Source: Acidaminococcus sp. CAG:917 (GTDB lineage: Bacteria > Bacillota > Clostridia > Christensenellales > CAG-917). From it: a DNA stretch of 64,000 bases. This document shows positions 16,225-46,340 of the stretch, one piece after another. How positions within the stretch are numbered: the stretch's first letter is position 1; each line of letters begins with the position of its first letter. Location of the stretch: positions 128,893 to 192,892 of the forward strand of contig FR901028.1 in assembly GCA_000437555.1 (NCBI GenBank), in the 5' to 3' direction. A program made the translations under genes and the position numbers. The notes below the pieces were generated by a model that was not told the DNA's origin, made no database searches, and worked only from the letters and a program-made list of their open reading frames with translations.

Positions 16225-16947
16225 TTATTTTTCCTCTTTGCCGATGGGCTTTTCCGCTTCGGCGAAAAATTCTTTTGAGTCAGACTGAACGGATACCGTT
16301 TTAATTCCGCACTTTTTCTCAAGCTCGACAATCCTTGAGTTTAAACGTCTGAATTCTTCCAAAATGGGGTCAGGCAGTAAAATCTGGTTCATATCCGACA
16401 CCCTCTCACCGTCCTGCTTGACTATTCTGCCCGGGACGCCGACGACGGTGCAATAAGGGGGCACCGATTTAAGCACCACGCTGCCCGAGCCTATCTTGCT
16501 GCCTTTGCCTATCGTGAGCGGCCCTAAAACTTTTGCGCCGCAGGATATCATCACGTCGTCCTCGATGGTGGGATGACGCTTTCCGACGTCTTTTCCCGTT
16601 CCGCCCAGGGTCACGCCCTGATATATGACAACGTTGTTTCCTATCTCGCAGGTTTCGCCAATCACCACTCCGCTGCCGTGGTCGATAAACACGCCGTATC
16701 CTATCTTGGCGGCAGGGTGAATTTCTATGCCTGTTTTATGCCTTGCCTTAGCCGATATGTAACGCGCCATACATTTCATGCCCCTTTCGTAATACCAATG
16801 GGCATAACGGTAAGCCTTTATCGCTTTATATCCGCTGTAATAATGTTTGACGCAGTATATGCTTGTAGCGGCAGGGTCTTTCTCCATTGCCGCTTTAAGG
16901 TCAAGCTTTAACATCTCTTTTATTGACATTTTATTCTTTTGGCTCAT
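16225..16947 (-). CDS. cysE: Serine O-acetyltransferase
   Basis: Hexapeptide core [44 protein letters not shown] and a SATase N-terminal helix region. Start ATG 16947 (RBS-like ACGGGGA) overlaps the ftsH stop; ATG 16929 is the alternative. Confidence 0.88.
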
Positions 16948-18907
16948 TGTCCCCGTCTGCCTTCTTTTCCGCCTTATTTTGTTTGGGCTTTTCCTCTTTG
17001 TTTTCGCCCTCGGCGATATCCGACTTGCCCTCTTCCGACTTACCGCCGTCCGTCTTGCCGATATCCGTCTTATCCTCTTCCGACTTGCCTTCGCCGAAAA
17101 GCTCGTCCACTTCGTTTGCGAAAATGGTTTCCTTTTCAAAGAGAATTTTTACCATTTTGTCGAGAATATCTCTGTTCTCTTTCAAAATGTTTATCGCCCT
17201 TTCGTGTGCCTCGTCAAGTATGGCCTTGATTTCCGCATCGATTTTTGCGGCAACGGCGTCGGAATAGTTCACCTGAGTCTGAAAGTCTCTGCCGATAAAC
17301 ACTTCCTGAGAAGAGCCGAGGTGCATAGTGCCGATATTTTTGGACATACCCCACTCCGTAACCATTTTACGCGCGATAGAGGTTGCCCTTTGAATATCGT
17401 TTGAAGCTCCCGTCGTAACGTCTTTTATGACGAGCTCTTCCGCCGCTCTTCCGCCGAGCATCATGGCGATTGTGTCGCACAGTTTATTATACGTCATATG
17501 CATATCGTCTGTTTCCGGCAAAGTAATTGTATAACCCGCCGCCATACCTCTGGGTATGATGGAAACTTCGTGCACGTCGTCGCAGTATTTAAGCCTTTTG
17601 GCGCAGATTGCGTGTCCCGATTCGTGATAGGCTGTGATACGCTTGTCAAACTGAGTGACCACTCTGCTCTTTTTGGCAGGACCTGCTATAACCTTGTTGA
17701 TTGCCTCGTTGATATCTGCCATCTCGATGACTTTTCTGTCCGCGCGGGCAGCAAGTATTGCAGCCTCGTTCAAGAGGTTTTCGATATCGGCACCCGTAAA
17801 GCCTACGGTAAGGCGGGCGATAGCTTTGAAGTCGATTTCGGGAGAGAGAGGCTTGTTGCGCGAATGGACTTTGAAGATTTCCTCTCTTCCCTTGACGTCG
17901 GGAGTGTTGACGAAAATCTGTCTGTCAAATCTGCCCGGTCTCATGAGAGCGGGGTCGAGTATATCGGCACGGTTGGTTGCCGCCATAACAATTATCGAAT
18001 CGTTCGACTCGAAGCCGTCCATCTGAACGAGAAGCTGGTTTAGCGTTTGCTCTCTTTCGTCGTTTCCGCCGCCGAGACCTGCGCCCCTTTGACGGCCGAC
18101 TGCGTCGATTTCGTCAATGAATATTATGCACGGCATATTCTTTTTGGCTTGGTCGAAAAGGTCTCTTACTCTCGACGCTCCGACGCCCACGAACATCTCG
18201 ACAAAGTCTGAACCGCTGAGCGAGAAGAACGGCACGTTGGCTTCTCCTGCAACCGCCTTGGCAAACAAGGTTTTACCCGTTCCCGGAGGTCCGACAAGCA
18301 AAACGCCTTTGGGAACTCTTGCGCCTATTTCTCTGAACTTTTTGCTGTCTTTCAAAAAGTCGACGATTTCTTTTAATTCCTCTTTCTCTTCTTCTGCACC
18401 CGCTACGTCGGTAAAGCGAACTTTGACGTTTTGCGCCATGTTGGCTTTTGTCTTTCCGAAGCTGAACGCTTTGTTTCCCGCTCCGCCCGATTGCTTAAAC
18501 AGCATAACGAAAAACACGACGAGCAACACAAGCGCTATCGCCGGAACGATGAGCGAAAAAATCGTGCTTGATGTAGACGGATTGTCATATACGATGACGG
18601 CTTTTACGGCAGGCGCGTTTTCCGATTCGTAAACGGATTTATACACCTCGTAAAACTGACTTCTTGAATCTATATAGCAATATGCGTTCTTTTTGTTTGA
18701 GTCCACATATTCGATATCGACTCTGTAATTTCCCGTGAGCGTCAACGTTTTTACCTCGCCCGCTTTCATACTTGCAATCAAGCTGTTTTCCTTGCCGTCG
18801 AAACTTATCTCGTTTCTGTTGGTCAAGGTAACGGACAAAATGATTGCAACGACAATCAAAACCGCCGCAATCGTTATTATCAACGCCCTTCTTCCTGTTG
18901 CGTTCAT
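16931..18907 (-). CDS. ftsH: ATP-dependent zinc metalloprotease FtsH
   Basis: Two TM segments. Walker A GPPGTGKT, Walker [12 protein letters not shown] region, and HEAGH-type HESGHA zinc site. K/E/G-rich C-terminal tail. Confidence 0.95.
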
Positions 18908-18990
18908 TATTCCTCCTTAGCCTTTAGGGGGCAAAGTTATAAACTTTAAATCAAATAGGTATTATATCAATATTCACACGATTCGTCAAC

Positions 18991-19461
18991 TTATTCGCAT
19001 TCTTTGACAAAAGCGCACTTTTGGGCAAAAATAAAAGACGTATATATCGCTTTGGCGATCCTTTCGGACATATCGCAAACAAGACTGAAATCTGCGCTCA
19101 AAAGATTGGTGAGCGTGTCGCCGTCACGGGGCGCTACTATACCGAGAATGCCTATATCGCCATAGGCGTTTGCCGTTTTGTCGAGCGCGGCTTTCGGACG
19201 AACGCCCTCTTTTACTACGATTTTGCCCACGTCCTCTTTTTTGCCGACGCATGCGTCCACGGCAATTACCACGCTACCCTGATGGACGGAATGTATCATA
19301 TCCAGCGTAGAATCTATCTTTTTTGCGTTTATATCGTCGTTTAAATCTCCGTAAACAAACGTTTTTATATTATATTTTTCCTTAAGGGCGGTTCCCACCA
19401 TGGGAGCTAAAGAATCGCCCGTCACTTCTCCCGTGCCAAAGCAAACTATAACTATTTCCAT
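18991..19461 (-). CDS. yyaC: Putative sporulation protein YyaC (GPR-like protease fold)
   Basis: FGTGEVTGDSLAPMVG matches the YyaC IGTDRSTGDxLGPLVG motif. Start moved to ATG 19461 (MEIVIV..., perfect RBS GGAGGA 5 nt upstream) instead of the track's TTG at 19503. Confidence 0.7.
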   Translation of the reverse strand: MEIVIVCFGTGEVTGDSLAPMVGTALKEKYNIKTFVYGDLNDDINAKKIDSTLDMIHSVHQGSVVIAVDACVGKKEDVGKIVVKEGVRPKAALDKTANAYGDIGILGIVAPRDGDTLTNLLSADFSLVCDMSERIAKAIYTSFIFAQKCAFVKECE

Positions 19462-19835
19462 ATTTTCCTCCGCATACATTATTGCCAAAGGAAATTTTTT
19501 CAATCACTGCTACGGGTGTTTCCGGAAATTTTTAATTTTTTTCGGGCTGTCTTTTCGCTGTTTAAAAAGATATAAATTTCAAGTAAAAATCGCAATCTCA
19601 AGACGAAACGAGGTTTTGCTTTTTAAATTGATTTCTGCCTTAGCGATTTAAGTTTTTGAGTTTAATGCAATAAATTATATTTTAAATACTTAAAAACAGC
19701 TTAAATAGGGCTTTTTTTGTTATTTTTGCCAAAATATTTACAATATCTGTAAATGATTTTGCTCTGCGCCTATTGATTTTAAAACAATTATGTTATATTA
19801 TATAAACGTATATTATTGTCTAACTAAGGAGAAAA

Positions 19836-20591
19836 ATGCTTTACTCTGTTTCGGCGTTTAATTTAGCGGACGGCGCAATTTTATTGGTGCTTGTGCTCGC
19901 TCTTATCCGGGGCATAAGAAAGGGGCTAAGCGAATCCCTCAGCGGATTCGTTTTTAACCTGCTTTTGCTTGTCGCCGCCCTGTATCTTGCGAGCGTCTGC
20001 ACAAATCCGCTGCTTGACACGCCGACGGGACAAAAGCTTTACGAAGCGGTTTACGGTTGGTCGGAAAGCTGGGGAACGGAATTCACTTCTCCTGTGTTTT
20101 TCAACAACGGAACTCCGTTTATCTACAATGAAGCGGGAGAGGCGATAGAGCTGAGAGCCGCCGCCTCGAACAGCATTTTGGGAATGATTCTCGGCTTTTT
20201 GGCTCCGAAACTTTTGCCTGCCGAGGGCGGAGCGTCACTTGCGGACGCCATAGTCCCAAACTTTGTGGCAATAGTTTTCGCATTGGGACTGTTTATCGTG
20301 TTTTTCATAATTTTGAAGATTATCTTCAAAATAGTAGAAAAACTTGCCGAAAAATTCGAGGACGCGCCAAAACTCAAGTGGCTTGACAAGCTTTTGGGCG
20401 TTATCGTTTCAATGATTTTGGGATATGCCTTTGCCCTCTTCGTGTTCGGATTTTTGGGCATATTCGAAAACTTTTCGTTTATGGCGTCGGCGGTAAGTTA
20501 TATCGAAAATTCGGCATTTGCTTCCGCTATATGGACAAACAATCCCATACGGTTGCTGTTTATCAATATGTTCGGCGCACCGGGCGCATAG
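19836..20591 (+). CDS. cvpA: CvpA-family membrane protein
   Basis: 251 aa with 4-5 TM segments. The N-terminus (NLADGAILLVLVLALIRGIRKGL) is typical of CvpA. RBS AAGGAG. Confidence 0.65.
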   Translation: MLYSVSAFNLADGAILLVLVLALIRGIRKGLSESLSGFVFNLLLLVAALYLASVCTNPLLDTPTGQKLYEAVYGWSESWGTEFTSPVFFNNGTPFIYNEAGEAIELRAAASNSILGMILGFLAPKLLPAEGGASLADAIVPNFVAIVFALGLFIVFFIILKIIFKIVEKLAEKFEDAPKLKWLDKLLGVIVSMILGYAFALFVFGFLGIFENFSFMASAVSYIENSAFASAIWTNNPIRLLFINMFGAPGA

Positions 20592-20629
20592 ACTTTTGCA
20601 GTAAAATTCTGAAATAAGGGGTATGGCTT

Positions 20630-23600
20630 ATGGATAGTAAAAAAACAAAGACTGAAAATACAAAGCCGGAAAAAGAAAAGAAAAAGAAAAAGGAAAAAAG
20701 AGGCTGCAAAGGCTGTCTTAAAGATATGTTTGTGCTCATCGTCGGAATGATAACGGGCATAATCGTTTTTGTCGCGGCGGTTGTGGGAACCGTTTACGTT
20801 GCCCTTACGGCGGTTTCGGTAAAAGATTTGCAACAGACTTTCGGCGTAGAGCTTGTCCCCGAAGACAATGCCGAACTTTTGAATAAAAATATGCTTCAGC
20901 TTGTCCAGGAAGTTATCGGTATGGCGTCCGACATATCGAACGTTTCGATAGACGACATTCTCGATACTTTCAATCTTCCCATACCCAACGAGATTGAAGG
21001 CATTGACATAACGCCTCTGTTCAAGTATCCGATTTTTGAAATCCCCAATCACGTTTCGGAAGTTACGAGCAACATAACAATAGACACGATAGCGAGACTT
21101 GCCAATATCGATTTGGCTTCCTATAACATTCCCCTTCTTTTAAAACTCGAAGACGAAACGATCGAAAATGCCGCAGATGTTTTGCTCAAAAAGATGAACG
21201 GCAACATATCCTTGAGATTGCTTGAAGACGATTTCGGCATAGAGATTGAGGGAGAGAATTCCGTTTTGGAAAACGTGCAGGACGTCATAATCGGCGAACT
21301 CGGCGGAGTGCTCGACTATTTGACGTTATCGGACATAATCGATATAGATTCTGATAAATTTATTTCTATCGAAGATACCGCCCTCTATTACTACGTGGGC
21401 GATAAAACGCAGTCGTATATTCAGATAGACAATCTTTCACAGTCTAACCCCTATTCCGAAAAATCGATATTTAAAGCGGACGAAGCGAGCGGTGTTTTGG
21501 ACAGGCGCGAAGTTTTGTATATCCGCCAAAAAGACAGTGACGGTGCATACGTGCTTGACAAATACGGAAACTACGTATATACCGTCGCAAACGATTTCTA
21601 CTTCATAGACCAATCGACTCAAACGCAGTTCGGAGCATACGTCAAAAACGAATCCGGCGAATTTGTTTTGGACGAAACCTTGGACGGAGAAATTTATTAT
21701 CGCCATATCGAATACGTCCCGTGCGACCTCGTTGCGGATATGCCGGAATTTTCGTCAATCGACGTTAAATACGTAAAAGCTTATATTAACCATTTTACTT
21801 TGCAAAACGGAAATTATCTTCCCGAAGCTTTCGGATATTTTGAAGTTTACAGAGGAGGCTTCCTCATAGGAACAAGCACAACGGGAAACGTCCCGTCGTC
21901 TGCTTCTGAATTTGTTCCGATAAACTCTCTTGACGAACTTAACGGACAGGACAAATTTTATTACAGCGATTTTAACACGCTGTCATACAGAGAGCTTACG
22001 GCATACGGAATAGACTACGGCACGGCAGACAGTCCAGTTGTTCCAGACGCAAACAGCTCTCTTTCGTCGCAAAAGAGCGGATATCTAAAGGCACATACGG
22101 GCACAAGCAACAAAACTTTGCAAGCGGTCTCGAGAATACAAATAAAAAATCTGTCCGATATCATTGACAAGGTTAAAACGTTAAAAGTGGGCGAACTCAT
22201 TGACGTATACGAAACGGCGACTCCCGAACACGAAAAAAGTCCGCAGTTTTTAATCGAACTGAAAGACACTCCGCTCTCCGATTTATCGCAGGCAATAAAC
22301 GGACTGACTCTGTCCGCTTTCATTGAGATAGATTCAACAAGTCCGAAACTTTTGCAGGCTCTTAAAGACAGCTCCCTTTCGACCATAGAGACCGACATAG
22401 CAAACGTTTGTCTTGCCGACATCATTGAAATTGATTCGTCGTCAAATGCGCTTCTCAAAAAAATCGCTTATACCGCAATAACGGATATGAGCAACGCAAT
22501 AAGCAGTCTGTTTAACGATATAGTTTTAAATGACGTGTTAAATTTAAATCTTTATTCCGCTTTCGTTTCCGATGCGGTGGGAGAATACGCTTTACTTGAA
22601 TTCAAAAACAAATTTATTCCTTTCGACAGAGGCGACTACGTTCTGGAAAACGGCAATTACGTTTACTATGACTCTAAAAATCCCGACCATGCTTTGCTTC
22701 AACGCTATGAAAGAGGTTATGCCTATATACCGTCAGACAGCGGAAATTATGTTTACAACGTCTATGACGAAACGGGCAATCCATACGTCTTTTACGACCT
22801 TAACAATTCCGCCATGCCATCGGTTGCCGATTCTATCGCCGCAGGCAATATGTATTATTTTGACGTAACTAATTTAGCTTCGCCTTACACGCAAATAACT
22901 TCCGAGGACGAATTTAACAACGTGTCTAAACTTTATCCGAAAATGCTTAAAGGTTATACCGGCTTTATCAAAAAGCCGTCGGGATATTCGGGAAGCTCAA
23001 TTAGTTTTACAAAGGTTTATGCCGACGACGTGCTCTTGGCTACCTCGACTGCAAGCGGAACCTACGTCATAAAATATAACGAGCTTACAAATATAGGCAC
23101 TGTTAAAGACGCCGACGACATAAACTATATTCCCGTTCGTTATTACGACAAAGCGGAACTTAAAGACACGCTTTATTATTCTCAGAACGGCACGGATTTT
23201 GTCGTTTACAGCGAAGCCGAGCACGGCGCAATGAGCACCGTATTTGACAACCTATATATCTGCCCGTCAAGCGTGAACGGACTATACACCTTTGACGGAG
23301 TAACATATAGCGAATATTTCGGTGATAAAACTGCCGACAATCTTTATGTTTTCGTAAAAGATTCTGCGGCGTTTGATACGTATTCGGGCGATTATTTCGT
23401 AAGATTTTCAGGTGCGGTGCTCGATGAGGACGGCTCTATGTCGGGACAGCATTATCAAAAAATTTATGCGGCTACCGTCGATTCGTCCGTCGCTGCCATG
23501 ATTCAGACCGCTCAGCTCACCTACCCGGATATCGTCGACGACGCCAATATAAGCTCGTTTGAGTTTGTCTCATATCAGACGGACGAAAACGGAGTTATAG

Positions 23601-23932
23601 AAAAAAGCCAAAACCTATTGATTGCTTTAAACAATAAACCGCTTTCGTCTTTAAACGACTCTTTTAAAAATATGACGCTCGGTGATTTGATTTCCGAATC
23701 GCCTGACACTTTCTTCAGTGGAACTATAATGAACTCCACTTTAAGCGACCTCGGAACCGTATTGACGGAAAAACTGTCTTCCGCTACTATGGGTGATATC
23801 ATCACCTGGTCGGGGATTGCCGTTGAACCTGCAATCGAACTTGCTCTTAACGACATAACCTTGGTTGACTTTTTCGACAGACTGACGATAACCGTCGTAA
23901 ACGGCAAACCTTTTATAGGCTTTGAACTGTAA
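20630..23932 (+). CDS. Large (1100 aa) N-terminally anchored protein of unknown function
   Basis: Uninterrupted ORF with RBS AAGGGG. Lys-rich cytoplasmic N-terminus, a single TM (FVLIVGMITGIIVFVAAVVGTVYVAL), then about 1040 aa with recurring L-S/G-D-I/L-I and GNYVY motifs. No family recognised. Confidence 0.8.
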   Translation: MDSKKTKTENTKPEKEKKKKKEKRGCKGCLKDMFVLIVGMITGIIVFVAAVVGTVYVALTAVSVKDLQQTFGVELVPEDNAELLNKNMLQLVQEVIGMASDISNVSIDDILDTFNLPIPNEIEGIDITPLFKYPIFEIPNHVSEVTSNITIDTIARLANIDLASYNIPLLLKLEDETIENAADVLLKKMNGNISLRLLEDDFGIEIEGENSVLENVQDVIIGELGGVLDYLTLSDIIDIDSDKFISIEDTALYYYVGDKTQSYIQIDNLSQSNPYSEKSIFKADEASGVLDRREVLYIRQKDSDGAYVLDKYGNYVYTVANDFYFIDQSTQTQFGAYVKNESGEFVLDETLDGEIYYRHIEYVPCDLVADMPEFSSIDVKYVKAYINHFTLQNGNYLPEAFGYFEVYRGGFLIGTSTTGNVPSSASEFVPINSLDELNGQDKFYYSDFNTLSYRELTAYGIDYGTADSPVVPDANSSLSSQKSGYLKAHTGTSNKTLQAVSRIQIKNLSDIIDKVKTLKVGELIDVYETATPEHEKSPQFLIELKDTPLSDLSQAINGLTLSAFIEIDSTSPKLLQALKDSSLSTIETDIANVCLADIIEIDSSSNALLKKIAYTAITDMSNAISSLFNDIVLNDVLNLNLYSAFVSDAVGEYALLEFKNKFIPFDRGDYVLENGNYVYYDSKNPDHALLQRYERGYAYIPSDSGNYVYNVYDETGNPYVFYDLNNSAMPSVADSIAAGNMYYFDVTNLASPYTQITSEDEFNNVSKLYPKMLKGYTGFIKKPSGYSGSSISFTKVYADDVLLATSTASGTYVIKYNELTNIGTVKDADDINYIPVRYYDKAELKDTLYYSQNGTDFVVYSEAEHGAMSTVFDNLYICPSSVNGLYTFDGVTYSEYFGDKTADNLYVFVKDSAAFDTYSGDYFVRFSGAVLDEDGSMSGQHYQKIYAATVDSSVAAMIQTAQLTYPDIVDDANISSFEFVSYQTDENGVIEKSQNLLIALNNKPLSSLNDSFKNMTLGDLISESPDTFFSGTIMNSTLSDLGTVLTEKLSSATMGDIITWSGIAVEPAIELALNDITLVDFFDRLTITVVNGKPFIGFEL

Positions 23933-24097
23933 AAAATATTTATCTCTAACGTAATTTTGATATTTTGCGTTAAAAAATATGCTCAATGCCGTTTTTAGAG
24001 GCTTTTAAACTTAATATAAATATGAAAACAAAATGTTTGAAGTTTTCAAAAGTATATGCCTTTTAGGTTATTACTTATGAAAGAAGGTAAAAAATAA

Positions 24098-24652
24098 ATG
24101 CAGATAAGAAAATATAAACAATCCGATTTTGAAAAAGTAAGACAGATTTGTTTTGAAACGGCGGTTGGCAGACAGTTTCAGATTAACAAAGAACTTGTAT
24201 GCACACTGTTTTGCGATTATTATCTTACTTATGAAAGCGATAACTGCTTTATTCTTTCCGCGGAAAACGACGAAGCCGTAGGATATGTAATTTGTGCCGA
24301 AAATTTTGACGAATACATAAACAGGTATTTTGAAAAATATTTTAAAAAAGTAAAATCACTGTCTAAAAGAGAAGCATTTATCAAAAAATGCGAAAAGTTT
24401 TTTTATAAAAAAATTTCAAAATCATATCCTGCTCACATTCATATTGACATTTTAGAAGAATACAGAGGAAAAGGCTACGGTAAAGGTCTTATAAGAAAGC
24501 TTATCGACAGCTTAAAATCCAAAGGCGTAAAAGGAATTTATCTTACCGTGGATACAAAAAACAAAAAGGCGATAAAGTTTTACTATAAACTCGGTTTCTC
24601 AAAATTAAAATCCATCTTTGGTAAAGCCCTGATTATGTGTAAAAAACTTTAG
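24098..24652 (+). CDS. GNAT-family acetyltransferase
   Basis: 184 aa. The Q/RxxGxG/A-type motif YRGKGYGKGL and a GNAT C-terminal beta strand (KAIKFYYKLGF). Noticeably AT-rich codon usage. Confidence 0.75.
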   Translation: MQIRKYKQSDFEKVRQICFETAVGRQFQINKELVCTLFCDYYLTYESDNCFILSAENDEAVGYVICAENFDEYINRYFEKYFKKVKSLSKREAFIKKCEKFFYKKISKSYPAHIHIDILEEYRGKGYGKGLIRKLIDSLKSKGVKGIYLTVDTKNKKAIKFYYKLGFSKLKSIFGKALIMCKKL

Positions 24653-24752
24653 TTAAACTCAACGTTTTTATTGTGTTTATAATCTACCGTTTTTTATCCT
24701 TTAACTTTTTATAAATTATAAATTGCATATTTATAAATTAAAGATTTAAAAC

Positions 24753-24900
24753 AAACTAATAATTAAAACCAAACTAATATTTAATAATGAATTAATATTT
24801 AATATGAGCTAATATTTAATATGAACTAATAATTAATATGAACTAATATTTATTTAATTTTAAACTAATATTTCAGAAAATCACCTAATATTTTAATAAA
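24753..24900. repeat. AT-rich tandem array: 8 copies of core CTAATAWTT at 17-21-bp spacing
   Basis: The units read: aaaCTAATAATTaaaacc, aaaCTAATATTTaataatg, aatTAATATTTaatatg, agCTAATATTTaatatg, aaCTAATAATTaatatg, aaCTAATATTTatttaatttt, aaaCTAATATTTcagaaaatc, acCTAATATTTtaataaataaa. Confidence 0.8.
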
Positions 24901-24902
24901 TA

Positions 24903-24932
24903 AAATCCGCCGAAAATTCGACGGATTTTTAA
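24903..24932. terminator. Bidirectional hairpin terminator (downstream of dnaN; distal to the GNAT gene)
   Basis: AAATCCGCCG-aaaatt-CGACGGATTT stem (9 of 10 bp paired), with T-runs on both strands. Confidence 0.7.
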
Positions 24933-24979
24933 TTTTTCTATTTTAAAACAATTAAATTTAAGCTTTGTTTTTTATTAAT

Positions 24980-26086
24980 TTATTTGTTATACATAACTCT
25001 GAGCGGCAAAATGAGATAAAGCCAATTTTTTTCCTGTCCTTTTATAATTCCCGGAGCAGACGGAGTCGTAAAATTCAGCGTTATATATTGGTCGGATATG
25101 GCTCTCATCGCGTCGGTTATATACTTACTGTTAAAGGCTATCATCATATCTTTGCCTTTTAAAGATATTTGGACTTTTTCGTTTACTTCGCCCGTGTTTG
25201 ATTCCGCCTTTAAAAGTATGACGTCTTCCTTTATTTCCATTTTCACGTAACTCTTTTTCTCGTTTCTTGAAATAAGGGACACTCTTTCGATTGCGTTTTC
25301 AAATTGTTTTTTATCGACTACTACTTCCGTTGTAAATTCTTCGGGAATAATTTTTTCATAAGCCAAAAACTCATCGTTTATGAGCCTTGTAACTATTTTC
25401 GTTCCGCTAAGCTCCAACATAAGATAATGCTTTTCAAAAGTCAGAGTTATTGTTTCTTCCGTATCGTCAATAAGTCTGCTCATTTCAAGCAAAGATTTTG
25501 AAGGAACTACTATCTGCTCTTTTTCAACGCTGTTTTCCATGGGAATCTGAGCGAGAGCAAGCCTGTAACCGTCAGAGGCGACTCCTTCCAATATGTTTTC
25601 TTTTATGTTTAAACAACATCCTTTAAGCGGAGGTCTGCTTTCATCTGTCGCAACGTTAAAAATTATCTTGTTTATTAAATCTTTAAATGCGAGTTTATCT
25701 ATTTTTATGGATTTTTCCTGACTTACCGATTTAAGCTCAGGATAATCTTCAAAATCGAGACATGCAAATGAAACGTCGCTGTCGAGATATTTTAATTTGA
25801 GCTTATTTTTATTTGTTCCGTCAAGCTCTATTTTTTCTTCTTCAATCTTTTTGCAGTATTCCGCAAAAATTTTACCGGGCACTATTATTTCGCCTTCAAT
25901 CAGAACTTCAGCCTTTATTTTCTTTTCAATCCAAAGCTCGAGGTCGGTTGCAAGAAGCGTGAGTTCGTCACCTTTAGCGGTGAGCTTTACGCAATCCAAA
26001 ACAGGATTCATTCTTTTTAAAGGCAAAGCCTTAATTACTTTTGAAACCGCATCGCTAAGCTCTATTCCCTCGCATTTGATTTTCAT
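24980..26086 (-). CDS. dnaN: DNA polymerase III beta sliding clamp
   Basis: 368 aa. N-terminus MKIKCEGIELSDAVSKVIKALP...NPVLDCVKLTAKGDELTLLATDLE. RBS AAGGAGAG. Immediately downstream of dnaA. Confidence 0.95.
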   Translation of the reverse strand: MKIKCEGIELSDAVSKVIKALPLKRMNPVLDCVKLTAKGDELTLLATDLELWIEKKIKAEVLIEGEIIVPGKIFAEYCKKIEEEKIELDGTNKNKLKLKYLDSDVSFACLDFEDYPELKSVSQEKSIKIDKLAFKDLINKIIFNVATDESRPPLKGCCLNIKENILEGVASDGYRLALAQIPMENSVEKEQIVVPSKSLLEMSRLIDDTEETITLTFEKHYLMLELSGTKIVTRLINDEFLAYEKIIPEEFTTEVVVDKKQFENAIERVSLISRNEKKSYVKMEIKEDVILLKAESNTGEVNEKVQISLKGKDMMIAFNSKYITDAMRAISDQYITLNFTTPSAPGIIKGQEKNWLYLILPLRVMYNK

Positions 26087-26152
26087 TTTCGCTCTCCTTT
26101 GTTGTTTAATATATTTTTTAAATTATTACTATTATTATTATCCCTGTTTATA

Positions 26153-26273
26153 AGTGGATAAATTTTTTATAACACAATATTTAGAAACTAACAATATTAA
26201 AAATCAAAATATAGTGTTTTTTTAATTAATTTTGTGTTGATAACTTTTTTTTATTTTCCACAAAATATCAACA
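26153..26273. promoter_or_regulatory. DnaA-box-like 9-mers in the dnaA-dnaN intergenic region
   Basis: Boxes versus consensus TTATCCACA: AGTGGATAA 26153-26161 (1 mismatch), TGTTGATAA 26235-26243 (1 mismatch), TTTTCCACA 26254-26262 (1 mismatch), ATATCAACA 26265-26273 (2 mismatches). Confidence 0.55.
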
Positions 26274-26292
26274 AAATAAAAAGTTTTCAACA

Positions 26293-27666
26293 TTACTTAT
26301 TTAAAAGCGAATTTTTTATATCCGTAACTATAATCCTCATGCGCGGATTCTTTTTTATTTCTTCGGTTATTTTATCTCTTGCGTGCATAACGGTTGTATG
26401 GTCTCTTCCCCCGAAAATTTTTCCTATGGAAACTAAGGGAACACCGAGCATGTTATCCATAAGATACATTGCTATCATTCTCGGTTCGACGATAGACTTT
26501 GTTCTGCTGCTTCCCGTGATGTCTTGATTTGTGATGTTAAAATAATTGCAAACGGCGCTTATTATATCGCTCTCTTCTATTTTTTCTTTTTTATCCTCGA
26601 TAAAATCAGAGAGAGCCTCTTTTGCTATATCGACAGTATCGACGGTATGATTTGTAAGAGAACTGTAAAAAATTATTTTGTTTAAAAGACCTTCCATCTC
26701 TCTGATGTTAGAGGTTGATTTTTCTGCGATATATTCCGCCACTTCGTCGGAAAGGTTAAATTTTTCTCTGACCGCTTTGTTTTTCAATATGGCGATTTTT
26801 GTTTCCATATTTGGGGGTTGAATATCAACGGTAAGACCCCAAGAGAACCTTGTCCTTAACCTGTCGTTGAGTTTTTGAAGGTCGCTCGGGGAACAGTCCG
26901 CGGTTAATACTATTTGTTTTTGATTTTGATAAAGGTCGTTGAAGATATGAAAAAACGCTTCCTGAATACCTTCCTTTCCCGATATAAACTGAATATCGTC
27001 AATCATAAGTAAATCGACCTTGCGATATTTTTCTCTGAAATCGTTAGAAGAATTTTTATTTTCGTTTGAAGACCTTATCGAATTTATAAGTTCGTTTATA
27101 AAAGTTTCTGAATTGACGTATAAGATTTTAGCTCTTTGGTTTGTTTTTGTGATATGATTTCCGATTGCGTGCAAAAGGTGCGTTTTTCCGAGACCTGCCG
27201 AGGAATATATAAACAAGGGATTATATTTTCCGCCGAGGTCGTCGCAAATTGCTTTTGCCGCTTCTAAGGCAAACTCATTGCTTTTTCCTTTTACGAAATT
27301 ATCGAAAGTATATCTTTCCAAAAATTTCATAGTCTCAAAATCGTCATCGGTTTGACCTTTTACAATCAATCCCTCGTCTTCGATAAAACTGTCTTGTTTT
27401 TTTATATATTCTTCTTTATCCGTATCGAGAATAATTTCAACGTTTGTTATCATCGGATTTATTGAGGTAACGGTTTTTTTTATCGTCTTGAGATATTGAT
27501 TTTCGATAGTCTTTTTGGACATATTGGAAATAGTAGACAAAATGAGCGAATTTTTTACAAAACAAACAGGCTCGAGTTTATCTATCCACACGTCAAAGCT
27601 TATTGAATTTAAAACTTTGGATAATTCCGACTTTGCGTCGTTCCAAAAAGAATCGATATTTATCAT
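26293..27666 (-). CDS. dnaA: Chromosomal replication initiator protein DnaA
   Basis: 457 aa. Walker A SSAGLGKTHLLHAIG, Walker B LLMIDDIQF, sensor/arginine-finger region, and the domain IV DnaA signature (IGKIFGGRDHTTVMHA). Confidence 0.95.
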   Translation of the reverse strand: MINIDSFWNDAKSELSKVLNSISFDVWIDKLEPVCFVKNSLILSTISNMSKKTIENQYLKTIKKTVTSINPMITNVEIILDTDKEEYIKKQDSFIEDEGLIVKGQTDDDFETMKFLERYTFDNFVKGKSNEFALEAAKAICDDLGGKYNPLFIYSSAGLGKTHLLHAIGNHITKTNQRAKILYVNSETFINELINSIRSSNENKNSSNDFREKYRKVDLLMIDDIQFISGKEGIQEAFFHIFNDLYQNQKQIVLTADCSPSDLQKLNDRLRTRFSWGLTVDIQPPNMETKIAILKNKAVREKFNLSDEVAEYIAEKSTSNIREMEGLLNKIIFYSSLTNHTVDTVDIAKEALSDFIEDKKEKIEESDIISAVCNYFNITNQDITGSSRTKSIVEPRMIAMYLMDNMLGVPLVSIGKIFGGRDHTTVMHARDKITEEIKKNPRMRIIVTDIKNSLLNK

Positions 27667-27673
27667 AGATTAT

Positions 27674-27702
27674 ATTATAACTAAACCAAAAGAATTTTTC
27701 AA
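27674..27702 (-). promoter_or_regulatory. dnaA promoter TTGAAA-17-TATAAT ending 7 nt before the ATG (no SD)
   Basis: The minus strand reads cgTTGAAAaattcttttggtttagtTATAATataatctATG. Confidence 0.55.
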
Positions 27703-27784
27703 CGAATATCGTATTATTTTTATTTTTTTACAATATATGCTTTTTTGGTAATTTTTCATTTTAAAAGATAAAAACTATATTTGT

Positions 27785-27813
27785 TTGTAATATTTTAACT
27801 TTTAATATATAAT
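27785..27813 (+). promoter_or_regulatory. recF promoter TTGTAA-17-TATAAT ending 6 nt before the ATG (no SD)
   Basis: -35 at 27785-27790 and -10 at 27808-27813, then ttgagt and ATG 27820. Confidence 0.5.
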
Positions 27814-27819
27814 TTGAGT

Positions 27820-28887
27820 ATGCAAATCAAAAAACTTTACCTTAAAAATTTCAGAAATTATTCCGAAGAAACGGTAGAATTTTCCGACGGATTAAACGTT
27901 TTATACGGAGCTAACGCAGCGGGAAAAACAAATATGCTTGAGGCTGTTTATCTGACGAGCATAGCCAAAACTCCGAGAACGACAAAGGAAAAAGAACTCG
28001 TTTTGGAAGGTGAAAAATATGCCGTGGTAAAGGTTTTGGTGGAAAACAATTTTCGCAGTCATAAGGTGGAAATAATAATCGACGATAAGGGTAAAAAGAG
28101 AATTTTGGTGGATTCTCTGCCTATCAACAGAGCGGGAGAGTTAATAGGAGTCGTTGCCGTTGTTTTTTTCTCGCCCGACGAAATGAAGCTTGTCAAAGAA
28201 TCTCCGGACTACCGTCGCAGATTTTTGGACATATCCTTATCACAGCAACAAAAAGAGTATTTTAACGCTCTTGTGAAATATAATAAAATTTTAAAACAGC
28301 GCAACAATCTTTTAAAAAGCGACTATGACGATATGGACGCTATGCTGGACGTTTACGACGTTCAACTCTCAGACGTAGGTCTTGTCATTTTGGATAAAAG
28401 AAGGGAGTTTGTAAACACTCTCAAAACTTATGCTTTAAAAACGCATAAATTTTTGAGCGATAACGGCGAAACTTTGGAAGTTGAATACGAAACAGAATTG
28501 ACAAAAGATAACTTTTTAAAGCTTTTAAAGAAAAACAGAGAGAAAGATAAAAAACTGTCGTTTACCACGGTAGGTCCTCATCGCGACGATTTAAAACTTA
28601 TCGTAAACGGAAAGGACGCCAGAAAATTTGCGTCGCAAGGTCAGCAAAGAAGCATAGCCCTTTCTTTAAAGTTTGCCGAATTAGAGCTGTATAAAATCGA
28701 AACGGGCGAAAAAGCCGTTTTGCTTTTGGACGACGTGCTAAGCGAATTAGACGTGAAACGCAGAACTCAGCTTTTAGAGCTTTCAAAGGAATATCAAACA
28801 ATTCTCACCTGCACCGAGTTTGACAGTTATGAAAAGGCGGTAAAATTTAAAATTGAAAACGGAAAGATAATAAAAAGAGAATATTAA
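27820..28887 (+). CDS. recF: DNA replication and repair protein RecF
   Basis: MQIKKLYLKNFRNY, Walker A GANAAGKTNMLEA, signature-like SQGQQRS, and Walker B LLLDDVLSELD. ATG 27820 is preferred over the track's TTG at 27814. Confidence 0.9.
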   Translation: MQIKKLYLKNFRNYSEETVEFSDGLNVLYGANAAGKTNMLEAVYLTSIAKTPRTTKEKELVLEGEKYAVVKVLVENNFRSHKVEIIIDDKGKKRILVDSLPINRAGELIGVVAVVFFSPDEMKLVKESPDYRRRFLDISLSQQQKEYFNALVKYNKILKQRNNLLKSDYDDMDAMLDVYDVQLSDVGLVILDKRREFVNTLKTYALKTHKFLSDNGETLEVEYETELTKDNFLKLLKKNREKDKKLSFTTVGPHRDDLKLIVNGKDARKFASQGQQRSIALSLKFAELELYKIETGEKAVLLLDDVLSELDVKRRTQLLELSKEYQTILTCTEFDSYEKAVKFKIENGKIIKREY

Positions 28888-28983
28888 AATTTTAAAACGA
28901 CCTGTTAAATATTTTTTTAACAAGTTAAATATTTTTTAAGCCTTTAAATTTTAAAATAATGCATTAAAAACGGAAAAAAACAA

Positions 28984-29010
28984 AAAAGCCGCATTCGGCT
29001 TTTTATTTTA
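28984..29010 (+). terminator. Terminator after recF
   Basis: AAAAGCCG-catt-CGGCTTTT stem, then TATTTT. Confidence 0.7.
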
Positions 29011-29082
29011 TCGAAATTGACAAAACAGAGAAACAGAAGAAAAATCGTCAATATTTATTAAATTGCATCTGTTATCTATCAA

Positions 29083-29520
29083 TTAAATTTTTCTGTTTAC
29101 ATTTTCCAAAAACGCTTTACAGCCTTTTAAAATATCGTCGTAGGCTTTGTCAAAATTTCCGGTATACCAAGGGTCTGCAACGTCACGGTTTTCGCCTGTG
29201 AATTCAAGCAGTCTGAATACTTTATTTTGAGGGTCTCCGTTTAATCTTATTACCGTGTTGGTAAAGTTTTCCGTATCCATAACGAGAAAATAATCCGACT
29301 TATCGTAGTCGGAGGACTTTAAAAGCGTAGCGGTATGTTTGGAAAAAGGTATTCCCTCTTTTGTCAGCTTGACTTTTGCGGGATAATACATATCGCTGCC
29401 CAATTCGTCCGTGTGAGTGGCTTTCGAATCAACTTCTATTTTCGGTTCTAAATATTTTAATATAAACTGCGCCATAGGTGAACGGCAGATATTGCCGTGA
29501 CAAACAAACGTGACTTTCAT
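29083..29520 (-). CDS. Low-molecular-weight protein-tyrosine phosphatase
   Basis: Active-site CX5R(S) loop VCHGNICRSPMA at the N-terminus and a DP motif (DVADPWY) near the C-terminus. RBS AGAGGAA. Confidence 0.85.
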   Translation of the reverse strand: MKVTFVCHGNICRSPMAQFILKYLEPKIEVDSKATHTDELGSDMYYPAKVKLTKEGIPFSKHTATLLKSSDYDKSDYFLVMDTENFTNTVIRLNGDPQNKVFRLLEFTGENRDVADPWYTGNFDKAYDDILKGCKAFLENVNRKI

Positions 29521-29794
29521 TTTGTATTCCTCTTTTATTTTTTAATTTTATCATAAAATAAAAATCATTTCAATTTTTACACAGATAAAAATATTTGTTG
29601 AAGGTTCAGGCATAACAAATTTTTATTTATATTTTAAAACAGTTTTTATATTATAAAGTATCCTTATATAAATAAAAATAGCTTTCAATAAATATTATCA
29701 TTATAACCTTATATAATAAAAAAATATAACAGGAAAATTAGATATAATAAATAAACCCGTATAAAAAAATTTATATTTTATTTTTAAATAAAGT

Positions 29795-29822
29795 TTGAAA
29801 TTTAAATATAATTATCTATAAT
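29795..29822 (+). promoter_or_regulatory. Promoter TTGAAA-16-TATAAT ending 6 nt before the yitT-family ATG
   Basis: -35 at 29795-29800 and -10 at 29817-29822, then aggatt and ATG 29829. Confidence 0.5.
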
Positions 29823-29828
29823 AGGATT

Positions 29829-30914
29829 ATGAAGCAAGAAAAGAAACCGAAAAAAAGCCGAGCCGAACTTTTGAGAGAAATTTTCAATTTTAAAGGGATA
29901 AAGTTCTACAATTTCATTTTATTGACAGTAGCCGGTATAGTCAACGCGGTAGGCGTGACGATGTTTTTGGTGCCGGCAAATCTTTATGACGGCGGGCTTT
30001 CCGGTACTTCTTTTTTGCTCTCTAACGTTACGCCGCTTTCCCTATCGTTATGGCTCATCATTTTAAACGTTCCCTTTTTTTTGGTTGCGCTCAAAAAAGC
30101 AGGAATTAAATATATAATATATTCCCTTTGGGCAATCGGAATGTATTCGCTTTTCTCATACCTGTTTCAGAACGTTTTCGGAATCGATTTTTCCGACGGT
30201 TCGCCGATTGCCGGGCAGGACGTATTGCTTTGTTGCCTTTTCGGCGGTCTTATTAGCGGCATCGGAAGCGGTCTTACTATCCGTGCGGGCGGCGCTCTCG
30301 ACGGAGTAGAAGTCGCGGCGACTTTCTGTGCGAAAACACTCGGACTTTCCGTCGGTACGTTTGTAATGATTTACAACGTAATTGTTTATACTGTTGCAGG
30401 CGTTGTCTTCAAGGCATTTTCCGTGCCGCTCTATTCCGTCATTGCTTATGCGGTCGGCTTAAAAGCCGTCGATTTTATAGTAGACGGTTTCGACAAGGGC
30501 AAAGCCGTATTTGTCATTACCGATAAAAGTCAGACAGTCGCTTCTGCCTTGTCCGAGGAGTTCGGCAGAGGTCTTACCGTAATTAACGCCAAAGGTTTTT
30601 ATTCACAAACGGAAAAAATAGTGCTATACTGCGTAGTTAACAGGTTTGAGCTTTCAAAGCTTAAATCAATTGTCGAGCAAACAGACTCACAGGCTTTTAT
30701 AGCCGTAAGCGAAGTTACGGACACTCTCGGGTCCGATTTAAAATTCAGCCTTTTTAAACGCAAGAGCAATCTTGAAAAGATAATCAATCAATCCGAATTG
30801 AGCGATTCTCCTTGCGAAGTTTTACACCAAGTTCCGTCCGACGAACAAAGCGAGCCTTCAAATAATTCTTCTGAAGGGAAAACGGACAACGGCGGCGAAA
30901 ACAATAAAGTGTAA
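29829..30914 (+). CDS. YitT-family membrane protein (DUF161 repeats plus C-terminal DUF2179-like domain)
   Basis: 361 aa. Polytopic N-terminal half (GGLSGTSFLL, GGALDGVEV). Soluble C-terminal domain (FVITDK...GLTVINAKGFYSQTEKIVLYCVVNRFELSKLKSIV). S/E/N-rich tail. Confidence 0.8.
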   Translation: MKQEKKPKKSRAELLREIFNFKGIKFYNFILLTVAGIVNAVGVTMFLVPANLYDGGLSGTSFLLSNVTPLSLSLWLIILNVPFFLVALKKAGIKYIIYSLWAIGMYSLFSYLFQNVFGIDFSDGSPIAGQDVLLCCLFGGLISGIGSGLTIRAGGALDGVEVAATFCAKTLGLSVGTFVMIYNVIVYTVAGVVFKAFSVPLYSVIAYAVGLKAVDFIVDGFDKGKAVFVITDKSQTVASALSEEFGRGLTVINAKGFYSQTEKIVLYCVVNRFELSKLKSIVEQTDSQAFIAVSEVTDTLGSDLKFSLFKRKSNLEKIINQSELSDSPCEVLHQVPSDEQSEPSNNSSEGKTDNGGENNKV

Positions 30915-30978: not shown

Positions 30979-31054
30979 GCTTGTTTAGCTCAGTCGGTAG
31001 AGCATGCGGCTGTTAACCGCAGTGTCGGGGGTTCAAGTCCCTCAACAAGCGCCA
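30979..31054 (+). tRNA. tRNA-Asn (anticodon GUU), 76 nt with encoded CCA
   Basis: Acceptor GCTTGTT/AACAAGC, D arm TAGCTCAGTCGGTAGAGCA, anticodon stem-loop TGCGG-CTGTTAA-CCGCA, T arm GGGGGTTCAAGTCCCTC. Confidence 0.92.
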
Positions 31055-34272: not shown

Positions 34273-35163
34273 TTAGTTGTTATCTTTTTTTAAAATTTCT
34301 ACCAGCTGATAAATTCTTTCCAGGTCGTCCTTAGAGAAATAATCAATGGAAAATCTTCCTTTTTCCGGTGTTCCGACAAGTTTGACTCTCGTGCCGAAAA
34401 CTCTCTTCATATCGCTGACAAGCTCTTTTAATTCGAGTGTGAGAGGCTGAGTTTTTCTCGGACCGGACGGAATATTCTTTCTTGTCTCATAAAGCCTGAC
34501 TCTGTCTTCGACGTCCCTTACCGTCATTTTGTATTGAACAATCTGTTTGGCAAGATTTATCAAAAATTCTTTATTGTCAATGGTGACGAGAGCTCTTGCG
34601 TGTCCCGAAGAAATCTTTCCGCTTTTGACCATTTCAAGCACTTCCTCGGGAAGAGTTAAAAGTCTTAAAAGGTTTGTTACGTAAGGACGGCTTTTGCCTA
34701 TGCGGTCGGCAACCGCTTCCTGCGTTAGTCCGTGATTTGTCATAAGCTCTTTAATGCCTTCCGCCGCTTCTATTGCGTTTAAATCCTCTCTTTGAATATT
34801 TTCGATGAGGGATATTGCCTTTATTTCCTCGACGGGCAAATCTTTTATAATCGCAGGCACGGTTTTGAGATTTGCTTTCATAGCCGCGCGGTAACGTCTT
34901 TCGCCGGCTACTATTTGATAGCGGCCGTTGGGAAGTTTGGTGACGAGGAGCGGTTGCAGAACTCCGTAAAGCTTCATAGAGTTTGACATTTCCTTTAATG
35001 TTTCTTCGTCAAAAGTTTTACGGGCCTGTTCGGGATTGCGGTCAAGCATCGTTATGTCAAGCTGTTGAATCGCCCCTTCTCCTTCGATATTAACTTCTCT
35101 GTTGTCGGTATAGTCCGCAAACAACGCGCCTATGCCTTTGCCTAATCCTCTCTGTTGTGCCAT
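34273..35163 (-). CDS. parB: Chromosome partitioning protein ParB/Spo0J
   Basis: ParB box GERRYRAA, an HTH region (LTQEAVADRIGKSRPYVTNLLRLL), and position immediately downstream of parA. Confidence 0.9.
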   Translation of the reverse strand: MAQQRGLGKGIGALFADYTDNREVNIEGEGAIQQLDITMLDRNPEQARKTFDEETLKEMSNSMKLYGVLQPLLVTKLPNGRYQIVAGERRYRAAMKANLKTVPAIIKDLPVEEIKAISLIENIQREDLNAIEAAEGIKELMTNHGLTQEAVADRIGKSRPYVTNLLRLLTLPEEVLEMVKSGKISSGHARALVTIDNKEFLINLAKQIVQYKMTVRDVEDRVRLYETRKNIPSGPRKTQPLTLELKELVSDMKRVFGTRVKLVGTPEKGRFSIDYFSKDDLERIYQLVEILKKDNN

Positions 35164-35167
35164 AATC

Positions 35168-35947
35168 TTATCCTTTATTTTTATTTGTTCTGTTTAAAAA
35201 TTCGTTTTTCAAATCGGTATATGCTCTGCTGCCTAAACAATGTTTGTCATACAAAATTACGGGTTTTCCGAAGCTCGGAGCCTCGGCAAGACGAACGTTT
35301 CTCGGAATAATCGTTTTAAACACTTTCTCACAGAAATATTTTTTAATTTCTTCCGATACCTGCTGGCTGAGGTTGGCTCTTGAGTCGTACAGAGTGAGCA
35401 CAACGCCTTCCACTTCAAGTTTGGGATTGAGATATTTTTTTACAAGCATAACGGTATTCATCATCTGCGTTACGCCCTCTAAGGCATAATATTCGCATTG
35501 AATGGGAACTATTATTCCGTCGGACGCGGTAAGCGCATTTACGGTTAAAAGTCCGAGTGACGGCGGACAATCGAGGAAAATGAAATCGAAGTCGGCGCTC
35601 GCCTCGTTTATTTTTTCGGAAAGAATTTTTTCCCTTGCAATCACCACTTGCGCCATCTCAAGTTCCGCCCCGGCAAGGTCCATACAGCTCGGTATAAGCT
35701 TGAGCGTTGCAATGTCGGTATCCACTATCGCATCGGTTGCGCTCATCGAACCGCACAGCAAAGAATACGACGATTTTTCGCTTTTACGGTCGCTGAAACC
35801 TAATCCCGACGACGCGTTGCCTTGAGGGTCAAGGTCGACGACCAAAACTTTGTATCCGTCAAAAGCAAGACATGCCGCAAGATTTATGCACGTCGTCGTC
35901 TTTCCTACGCCGCCCTTTTGGTTGGAAAAAGCAATTATTTTAGCCAT
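35168..35947 (-). CDS. parA: Chromosome partitioning ATPase ParA/Soj
   Basis: Deviant Walker A NQKGGVGKTT at the N-terminus; 259 aa; followed by parB. Confidence 0.9.
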   Translation of the reverse strand: MAKIIAFSNQKGGVGKTTTCINLAACLAFDGYKVLVVDLDPQGNASSGLGFSDRKSEKSSYSLLCGSMSATDAIVDTDIATLKLIPSCMDLAGAELEMAQVVIAREKILSEKINEASADFDFIFLDCPPSLGLLTVNALTASDGIIVPIQCEYYALEGVTQMMNTVMLVKKYLNPKLEVEGVVLTLYDSRANLSQQVSEEIKKYFCEKVFKTIIPRNVRLAEAPSFGKPVILYDKHCLGSRAYTDLKNEFLNRTNKNKG

Positions 35948-38322: not shown

Positions 38323-38383
38323 CTGTTTTTTTTAAAAATTATATTCAAATTTATTTCGATAACCTTTTTAAGACAAAAATTTT

Positions 38384-38416
38384 ATCTCAAACGTTTTTCG
38401 TTTGAGATTTTATTTT
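38384..38416 (+). terminator. Terminator after luxS
   Basis: ATCTCAAACG-ttttt-CGTTTGAGAT 10-bp stem, then TTTTATTTT. Confidence 0.85.
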
Positions 38417-39365: not shown

Positions 39366-39374
39366 TGCGGATAA
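39366..39374. promoter_or_regulatory. DnaA box, 1 mismatch (TGCGGATAA = reverse complement TTATCCGCA)
   Basis: Direct 9-mer match to consensus TTATCCACA with 1 mismatch. Confidence 0.5.
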
Positions 39375-46329: not shown

Positions 46330-46340
46330 GGAGAAGCAAT

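Follow-up and report, generated by a model that had tools for sequence, protein, structure and literature searches.

A sharply bounded AT-rich dnaN–dnaA–recF block in an uncultured Christensenellales-type bacterium is probably a native replication locus

The closest described counterparts of the locus treated here are the bipartite replication origins of Firmicutes, whose subregions are incAB and incC in B. subtilis and oriC1 and oriC2 in C. difficile. The DnaA of C. difficile melts DNA in the spacer between dnaA and dnaN (PMC7561715), and basal unwinding systems can be sought with a rule that calls for a DnaA box, a spacer of ≤16 bp, and ≥3 DnaA-trios of the form (.A.) (PMC8287927). Chromosomal parS sites have the consensus TGTTNCACGTGAAACA and are expected to lie close to the origin (PMC7022226). 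Against these systems we set a low-GC block that carries dnaN, dnaA, and recF (hereafter, the trio) at positions 23940 to 29830 of a 64,000-nucleotide stretch of contig FR901028.1, from Acidaminococcus sp. CAG:917 of the order Christensenellales; this whole stretch is called the window, and coordinates refer to it unless another genome is named. An earlier note on the same DNA had proposed that the module might be compositionally foreign, either a xenologous replacement or a relocation, with the native origin DNA left behind at about 40 kb. We conclude that the block is probably the organism's own, vertically inherited replication locus, neither foreign nor recently moved. Taken as a whole, the locus is native and ordinary, and its origin architecture is of modest interest.

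Composition and descent of the block

GC content across the block is 0.315, against 0.420 for the whole window, 0.440 for the left 10 kb of flank, 0.406 for the right 8.4 kb, and 0.456 for the region from 44 to 64 kb. Both edges are abrupt, each taking ~200 bp or less (from 0.43 to 0.23 on the left and from 0.12 to 0.41 on the right). The ten 100-nt hand counts given in the earlier note all reproduce exactly, and its description of a dnaN–dnaA–recF block lying below its flanks holds over the full length (0.315 versus 0.41 to 0.46). Coding GC is 0.357 in the block and 0.456 elsewhere in the window. Set against the 38 other genes of the window (GC, 0.452 ± 0.026; GC at third codon positions, or GC3, 0.505 ± 0.051), all five block genes are depressed: a GNAT acetyltransferase gene, which is the most AT-rich gene of the window (GC, 0.308; z, −5.4), dnaN (0.363; −3.4), dnaA (0.349; −3.9), recF (0.374; −2.9), and the gene for a low-molecular-weight protein tyrosine phosphatase (LMW-PTP), the least depressed of the five (0.388; −2.4). 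The GNAT and LMW-PTP genes had been judged AT-rich by eye, and the z scores bear this out. The proposed GC3 check places the block genes at 0.30 to 0.42 (z, −3.9 to −1.7 against the other 38); GC at first and second codon positions is depressed as strongly as GC3 (Mann-Whitney p, 3e-4 to 2e-6). The six spacers of the block (1348 bp, or 23% of its length) have a GC of 0.172, against 0.288 in other spacers of the window. The fraction of FYMINK residues is 0.32 to 0.46 in block proteins versus ~0.27 to 0.36 elsewhere, so the bias toward N, K, and I noticed previously is real. By the standard of horizontal acquisition, then, composition is atypical for the host in GC and GC3, while the Karlin dinucleotide signature is typical (delta*, 55 versus 44 ± 18; 23% of segments deviate at least as much).

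The proteins encoded in the block share the history of those encoded beside it. Neighbor-joining trees with bootstrap, built for three block proteins (DnaA, DnaN, and RecF) and two flank proteins (ParA and ParB), all give the same nested clades with support of 86 to 100: the window with its sister species L095; L011 with L016 and L020; the genus; and the genus plus L017. Identities to L011, L012, L013, and L014 decay in parallel, at 80/67/63/60% for DnaA, 76/64/65/63% for DnaN, and 73/57/53/52% for RecF, compared with 77/71/64/66% for ParA and 79/70/61/61% for ParB. Third-position divergence from L095, which has 97% DnaA identity and the same gene order, is 0.31 to 0.39 in the block and 0.32 to 0.43 in the right flank. 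A mirror-tree comparison gave a correlation of 0.61, a value lowered by tblastn picking ParA paralogs at some loci; the residual of the window (+0.041) is no different from those of its sisters. DnaA homologs form a series of 97, 80, 78, 67, 63, and 60% identity, the named ones being Christensenellales or Clostridia metagenome-assembled genomes (MAGs), and the best matches all come from the same lineage. Several MAGs with a Clostridia-type dnaA locus (L037, L043, L044, L047–L050, and L059) are titled Bacteroides, Bacteroidaceae, or Phascolarctobacterium, which probably reflects mislabeling in the source records or misbinning.

The block is also stable within the species. In the index of a public assembly collection, an identical DnaA appears in 210 blocks, and all ten of the independent assemblies listed (with contigs of up to 701 kb) keep the same gene order over both block edges. 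Nine conspecific strains have nucleotide identities to the window of 98.4 to 99.7% in the block, 97.0 to 98.1% in the left flank, and 99.1 to 99.5% in the right flank; a tenth, L002, has 100% identity in all three parts. No relative examined lacks the locus, its distribution is not patchy, and one dnaA locus was returned per related genome; tblastn (E ≤ 10) detected no displaced relic of dnaA, dnaN, or recF in the 64-kb window. That the block is not a classical mobile element, as had been stated, is upheld: none of the block genes or flank genes scanned with Pfam encodes an integrase or transposase domain, and the search for boundary repeats gave nothing meaningful, AT-rich low-complexity matches alone. 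Similarity to plasmids or phages does not extend beyond short dnaA or recF cores at 67 to 82% identity. A tRNA-Asn gene (30979–31054) lies 1.1 kb past the right edge, separated from the block by a YitT gene of normal GC.

Gene order likewise argues against a recent move. The window reads parS cluster, luxS, pfs, rsmG, parA, parB, then amylase, esterase, YitT, and LMW-PTP genes, and finally recF diverging from dnaA, with dnaN following dnaA. In a feature-order table of 28 loci, the same backbone appears in relatives at 59 to 60% DnaA identity (L025, L028, and L031), and because it is shared at that distance, we read the order of the window as the ancestral type. The trio is rearranged instead in L011, L016, and L020 (by inversion) and in L017, and the divergent recF/dnaA pair is retained down to 44% DnaA identity. 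We had considered that a 3.4-kb noncoding zone near 40 kb might be a scar marking the former site of the trio, since the trio sits between luxS and the parS pair in the outgroup loci L012 and L017; this idea was rejected, given that the 28-locus table shows the window as ancestral-type and L017 as the rearranged genome. In the genus-mate L011, a tRNA-Asn gene lies directly downstream of dnaN (at ~12900 to 13350 of that locus); two ~110-bp repeats come next, both with a tRNA-3′-like GGGGGTTCAAG...GCGCCA at the end, and these repeats may be attachment-site remnants. In the window, unlike in L011, the tRNA-Asn gene follows YitT.

From left to right, the block begins with a boundary spacer (23933–24097; GC, 0.224) upstream of the GNAT gene (24098–24652, plus strand; Pfam PF00583, E 9e-17; GC3, 0.303). 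The GNAT and dnaN genes converge on a spacer (24653–24979; GC, 0.156) that holds a tandem array at 24744–24852 with a period of 17 bp and 6.3 copies by TRF (consensus, about AACTAATATTTAATATG). Across the ten conspecific assemblies, this array behaves as a variable-number repeat of 2 to 8 units in a spacer of 258 to 360 bp; the sister species L095 lacks it, as do L011 and L017. On the minus strand follow dnaN, for the DNA polymerase III beta clamp (24980–26086; PF00712, PF02767, and PF02768; GC3, 0.366), the dnaA–dnaN spacer (26087–26292; GC, 0.175), which resembles an oriC2/incC subregion, and dnaA, for the chromosomal replication initiator (26293–27666; PF11638, PF00308, and PF08299). A divergent promoter spacer of 147 bp (27667–27813; GC, 0.143) separates dnaA from recF (27814–28887, plus strand; PF02463). 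The recF start is 27814 (a TTG; 357 aa) in the mechanical open reading frame (ORF) and 27820 (355 aa) in public gene calls for the identical locus. A second convergent spacer (28888–29082; GC, 0.226) precedes the LMW-PTP gene (29083–29520, minus strand; PF01451), beyond which lies the right boundary spacer (29521–29828; GC, 0.140). Both boundary spacers are as AT-rich as had been described.

Alignment of window positions 16931–23932 with positions 14170–21119 of L095 sets the left flank apart: the genes for an 1100-aa ORF, CvpA, and FtsH differ at just 8 to 18% of third positions, compared with 31 to 43% for the other genes shared with L095, including 38% for the DUF1256 gene that lies between those for CvpA and FtsH. 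This contrast suggests that it was the left flank, not the block, that underwent recent interspecies recombination. The 1100-aa ORF itself (20630–23932) has no Pfam domain and encodes a lysine-rich N terminus followed by a hydrophobic segment; it always adjoins the CvpA gene across the order (L011, L014, and L095) and evolves fast, with 40% identity to L011 (neighbors, 54 to 86%) and 27% to L014.

The AT trough around dnaA and its possible causes

Low GC around dnaA is a conserved regional property, found lineage-wide and deep in this genus. Across 62 related loci, the GC of the trio follows that of the host over a range of 0.22 to 0.55. Mean offsets from neighboring ORFs are −0.017 (dnaA), −0.029 (dnaN), and −0.020 (recF), with 73 to 85% of loci on the negative side, and GC3 offsets are not systematic (+0.008, −0.021, and −0.008, respectively). 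A meta-profile anchored on dnaA in 41 species shows a shallow trough that spans about −1.5 to +5 kb, with a mean depth of −0.025 (standard deviation, 0.034) and negative values in 78% of species. At −0.101 (z, −2.2), the trough of the window ranks second of 42, alongside those of L025 (−0.103), L020 (−0.082), and L016 (−0.076), and a trough is also seen in L095, L011, L016, L020, and L017. Within the near clade, trio GC is 0.32 to 0.38, and that of neighboring genes is 0.39 to 0.45; trio GC3 lies 0.10 to 0.14 below the window mean and is low too in L016, in L017, and mostly in L020.

The dip follows position. The GNAT gene has a GC of 0.31 to 0.33 where it adjoins the 3′ end of dnaN (in the window and L095) versus 0.41 in L011, where a 60% identical ortholog is placed elsewhere, and its amino acid changes on the branch of the window number 11 AT-ward against 4 GC-ward. 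Over the first ~500 bp downstream of dnaN, GC is 0.21 in the window, 0.22 in L095, and 0.24 in L017, and L011 has its minimum (0.24) at 500 to 1000 bp downstream of dnaN. On the same branch, flank proteins underwent 126 changes toward AT-type and 176 toward GC-type residues (p, 0.005), whereas block proteins underwent 38 and 32. These patterns of conserved, position-linked low GC point to a position-dependent, AT-shifted equilibrium and not to a decaying foreign signature; at 67 to 80% protein identity, synonymous sites should be saturated, and a foreign GC3 signature should have ameliorated. Of the alternative to transfer raised in the earlier note, local mutational or expression bias, the local half thus stands, as a lineage-wide trough in coding and noncoding DNA, while expression bias by itself is disfavored.

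Under the native interpretation, the locus would consist of the divergent recF/dnaA pair, dnaN downstream of dnaA, and an unwinding-type element, to which the GNAT and LMW-PTP genes came to adjoin, and its low GC would have three layers. The first is an intrinsic AT lean of dnaA, dnaN, and recF, which run ~2 to 3 GC points under their neighbors order-wide; the second is the 23% of the block made up of very AT-rich spacer DNA with promoter, terminator, unwinding, and repeat sequences. Whereas these two are observed, the third is a pattern whose mechanism we infer: a regional substitution equilibrium shifted toward A+T and centered on dnaA and dnaN, which would act on coding and noncoding DNA alike and on whichever gene resides there, and which appears to be deep in this genus. 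AT-biased mutation is reportedly opposed in bacteria by selection or by GC-biased gene conversion. The most likely cause here would be a less effective opposition at this locus, by either force, with the rest of the genome having drifted GC-ward in the lineage of the window so that the origin locus was left behind; we give this cause about even chances. To our knowledge, no origin-centered GC trough of this kind has been described, although we did not search the literature for one.

Several points weigh against a native origin of the block. Its tetranucleotide correlation with the rest of the window is 0.67, the lowest among segments (others, 0.82 ± 0.05). This is the only signal toward foreignness, and we give it little weight: lower scores are expected of a 6-kb segment made up of 23% spacer and lying 10 GC points lower, and the noncoding zone at 38 to 42 kb scores almost as low. 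The trough has sharp, island-like edges along with its second-deepest rank of 42, and the amino acid composition of DnaA is more AT-type than its background predicts (z, +3.9), exceeding that of its sisters. The contrast between block and flank in polarized changes is marginal (Fisher p, 0.06), and the mechanism behind the regional shift is itself deduced from the pattern. The genome baseline is just the 38 nonblock genes of one 64-kb window, a baseline that we judge fair in that it mixes housekeeping genes (cysS, argS, ftsH, gyrBA, ychF, yidC, and mnmEG) with accessory ones (germination genes, ABC exporters, an esterase gene, and an amylase gene). Finally, there is a small chance of a replacement through homologous recombination, the donor being a close relative that is unsampled and slightly richer in AT.

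A more elaborate version of the native interpretation would join an origin-centered, AT-ward substitution regime that drives any resident gene, as it appears to have driven GNAT, with a physically split origin. The regime might stem from a recombination or gene-conversion cold spot or from initiation-associated DNA damage near the dnaN-proximal unwinding element, and the split would leave that element at dnaN, with the parS centromere, the boxes of high affinity for DnaA, and the switch in strand skew 13.6 kb off. We regard this combination as doubtful, at perhaps one chance in several.

Less probable still is that no regional process operates and that the block is simply the sum of AT-leaning proteins and the many AT-rich regulatory spacers found among short divergent and convergent genes. 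Order-wide total-GC offsets of −0.017 to −0.029 with a GC3 offset of about zero, and spacers making up 23% of the block at a GC of 0.17, would fit such a sum, but the intrinsic offset covers just 2 to 3 of the ~8 to 10 coding GC points. It also leaves aside the GC3 deficit of the trio, which recurs in L016 and L017 and mostly in L020, and the fact that GNAT and LMW-PTP, as unrelated proteins, share the dip, the GC of GNAT depending on location. A little less probable again is an effect of expression-linked codon usage, nothing regional being involved, in which weakly expressed dnaA, dnaN, and recF lack the preference for C-ending codons seen in highly expressed genes such as gyrA and ftsH. This was part of the alternative raised in the earlier note, and the block is indeed low in GC3, the highest values being those of gyrA (0.61), ftsH (0.57), and gyrB (0.55). 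Against it, first and second positions are depressed as strongly as third positions, and block spacers lie 12 points under other spacers; presumably weakly expressed neighbors (the 1100-aa ORF, esterase, YitT, and amylase genes) have a GC3 of 0.44 to 0.51, and the trio has no systematic GC3 offset across the 62 relatives.

Xenologous replacement, in which dnaA, dnaN, and recF, with or without the GNAT and LMW-PTP genes, came from a lower-GC donor, displaced the native copies, and kept an unameliorated signature, strikes us as very unlikely. It would account for five adjacent compositional outliers in a sharp-edged block, for the tetranucleotide correlation, for the unusually AT-type composition of DnaA, and for a tRNA-Asn gene 1.1 kb beyond the right edge. 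Opposed to it are the congruent trees and parallel identity decay of block and flank proteins; synonymous sites that have diverged from L095 to the same degree in block and right flank; a trough common to all genus members, and more weakly to the order, with trio GC tracking that of the host; a typical dinucleotide signature; an ancestral-type position, which speaks equally against relocation; the failure to find relics in the 64-kb window, mobility genes in the genes scanned, boundary repeats, or plasmid or phage similarity beyond short gene cores; DnaA matches that are best within the same lineage; and the GC-normal YitT gene between block and tRNA. The suggestion of a foreign module is accordingly not sustained. 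An assembly or binning chimera with the DNA of a lower-GC organism, for which the sharp edges and the metagenomic source could be cited, has a negligible probability, as these junctions recur in each of the ten independent assemblies examined, in the sister species L095, and, in rearranged form, in L011, L016, and L020.

Candidate origin sites at dnaN and near 40 kb

The block holds a candidate unwinding-type element, made up of a DnaA box and DnaA-trios, upstream of dnaN. Read directly on the minus strand toward dnaN, the dnaA–dnaN spacer presents three DnaA-box-like sites, a box TTATCCACT (26153–26161), a 12-nt spacer (26141–26152), six trios TAATAATAATAGTAATAA that read TAA TAA TAA TAG TAA TAA (26123–26140), and an 18-nt run of A and T only (26105–26122) that ends at the dnaN ribosome-binding site. 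The element at 26123–26161 satisfies the published search rule (PMC8287927), and its box-spacer-trio pattern has a single occurrence in the window, where 0.005 would be expected. The pattern is kept in the ten conspecifics L001 to L010, in which TAA/TAG swaps are the sole differences. A strict regular expression for box plus trios gave no match in relatives outside the species; when the upstream regions of dnaN in relatives were read directly, a conserved element of ~45 nt (TTTTCCACTTGTCAACA...CTTATTTATGYTATYATTATTAAAAA) appeared immediately upstream of dnaN, whichever the orientation of that gene. In many relatives at 56 to 63% DnaA identity (L013, L014, L018–L031, and others), dnaN is inverted and converges on dnaA, and the box/trio-like element has followed dnaN to the other end of the trio.

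A second low-GC stretch, left out of the earlier note, lies outside the block: a noncoding zone of 3.36 kb (38323–41681; GC, 0.316) with no ORF of ≥100 aa. It contains the only perfect DnaA boxes in the window (39620–39628 and 40092–40100), and three boxes with one mismatch lie between 39366 and 40077. Three predicted parS sites (39778–39793, which is perfect, 39819–39834, and 40926–40941) match TGTTNCACGTGAAACA with 0 to 1 mismatch, giving 6 strand matches versus 0.14 expected, and parA and parB lie nearby at 34273–35947; the sites thus combine a consensus match, an origin-proximal location, and nearby parAB, as chromosomal parS sites do. Relatives have paired parS sites, spaced 32 to 41 bp apart, in noncoding DNA beside luxS and 7 to 13 kb from dnaA, so a zone of parS sites and DnaA boxes at 7 to 13 kb from dnaA is normal for the lineage. 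Rfam found no match in 38323–41681 and just two tRNAs overall. The zone also includes a 50-aa ORF with four cysteines (zinc-ribbon-like) at 40539–40691, preceded by AAAAGGAG.

Strand asymmetry divides between the two sites. AT skew changes from −0.26 to +0.33 within 38323–41681, and a model of AT skew at third codon positions that accounts for gene orientation is clearly best at 38.4 to 41.7 kb (residual sum of squares, 128 versus 205 for 26.2 kb). By a narrow margin, the corresponding GC3-skew model fits best with a switch at 26.19 kb (124 versus 130), and the cumulative GC-skew minimum falls at 26 to 27.5 kb. We lean slightly toward the dnaN-proximal element as the site that fires; the 40-kb zone is the less favored but serious candidate, and that both sites fire, or that the origin is split between them, seems improbable. 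The placement of native origin DNA near 40 kb in the earlier note is therefore borne out in part, in that this region has the sole perfect DnaA boxes, the three predicted parS sites, and the switch in AT skew; as a sign of displacement it fails, since such a zone is normal for the lineage and the conserved unwinding-type element lies in the block.

The classical set of origin-proximal genes is present in full (44398–58845) and is scrambled relative to the order in B. subtilis. It includes a previously unlisted rpmH (L34, 44 aa) at 53084–53218, upstream of rnpA-yidC-jag-mnmE-mnmG. From dnaA, gyrB and gyrA are ~17 kb away, and rpmH and rnpA are ~25 kb away.

Comparison with known systems

The main value of these results is negative and methodological: a GC-deviant block of core replication genes looks xenologous, and comparative evidence says that it is native. 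Since the locus is native despite so sharp a deviation, GC deviation alone is a poor indicator of transfer near origins in this lineage. The analysis also documents the layout of the origin region in an uncultured, gut-associated clade of Christensenellales type, where recF diverges from dnaA, an unwinding-type element travels with dnaN, no box cluster lies upstream of dnaA, and a zone of parS sites and DnaA boxes stands apart.

Compared with the bipartite oriC of Firmicutes, the window has a similar dnaA–dnaN spacer, in which boxes and a 12-nt gap are followed by six TA[A/G] trios and then by a run of A and T only. The candidate element corresponds in position to the site of DnaA-dependent melting in C. 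difficile (PMC7561715), and it is conserved across the order to which the organism belongs. The differences lie upstream of dnaA, where the window has neither the rpmH–dnaA linkage nor a cluster of DnaA boxes; instead, dnaA shares with the divergent recF a 147-bp spacer in which no DnaA box was found. The nearest box cluster is at 39.4 to 40.1 kb, with the perfect boxes 12 to 13.6 kb off in the parS-bearing zone where AT skew flips, and many relatives have dnaN, together with the element upstream of it, in inverted orientation with respect to dnaA.

The likeness to a genomic island or to xenologous gene displacement is one of outline: the block is sharp-edged, atypical in GC, composed of several adjacent genes, and near a tRNA gene. 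Unlike such islands, it yielded no mobility genes, attachment-like repeats, or patchy distribution, and its phylogeny is congruent, its dinucleotides are typical, and its GC offset is conserved in relatives. The zone near 40 kb resembles a chromosomal ParABS centromere, with three putative parS sites near parA and parB and the origin-proximal gene set, although in the window the sites lie in a 3.4-kb AT-rich noncoding zone and not within genes. The nearest parallel for the composition of the block is regional GC heterogeneity of the kind attributed to AT-biased mutation: codon positions and noncoding DNA are shifted together, by position and not by gene, and it is the flanks that moved GC-ward, while the block did not.

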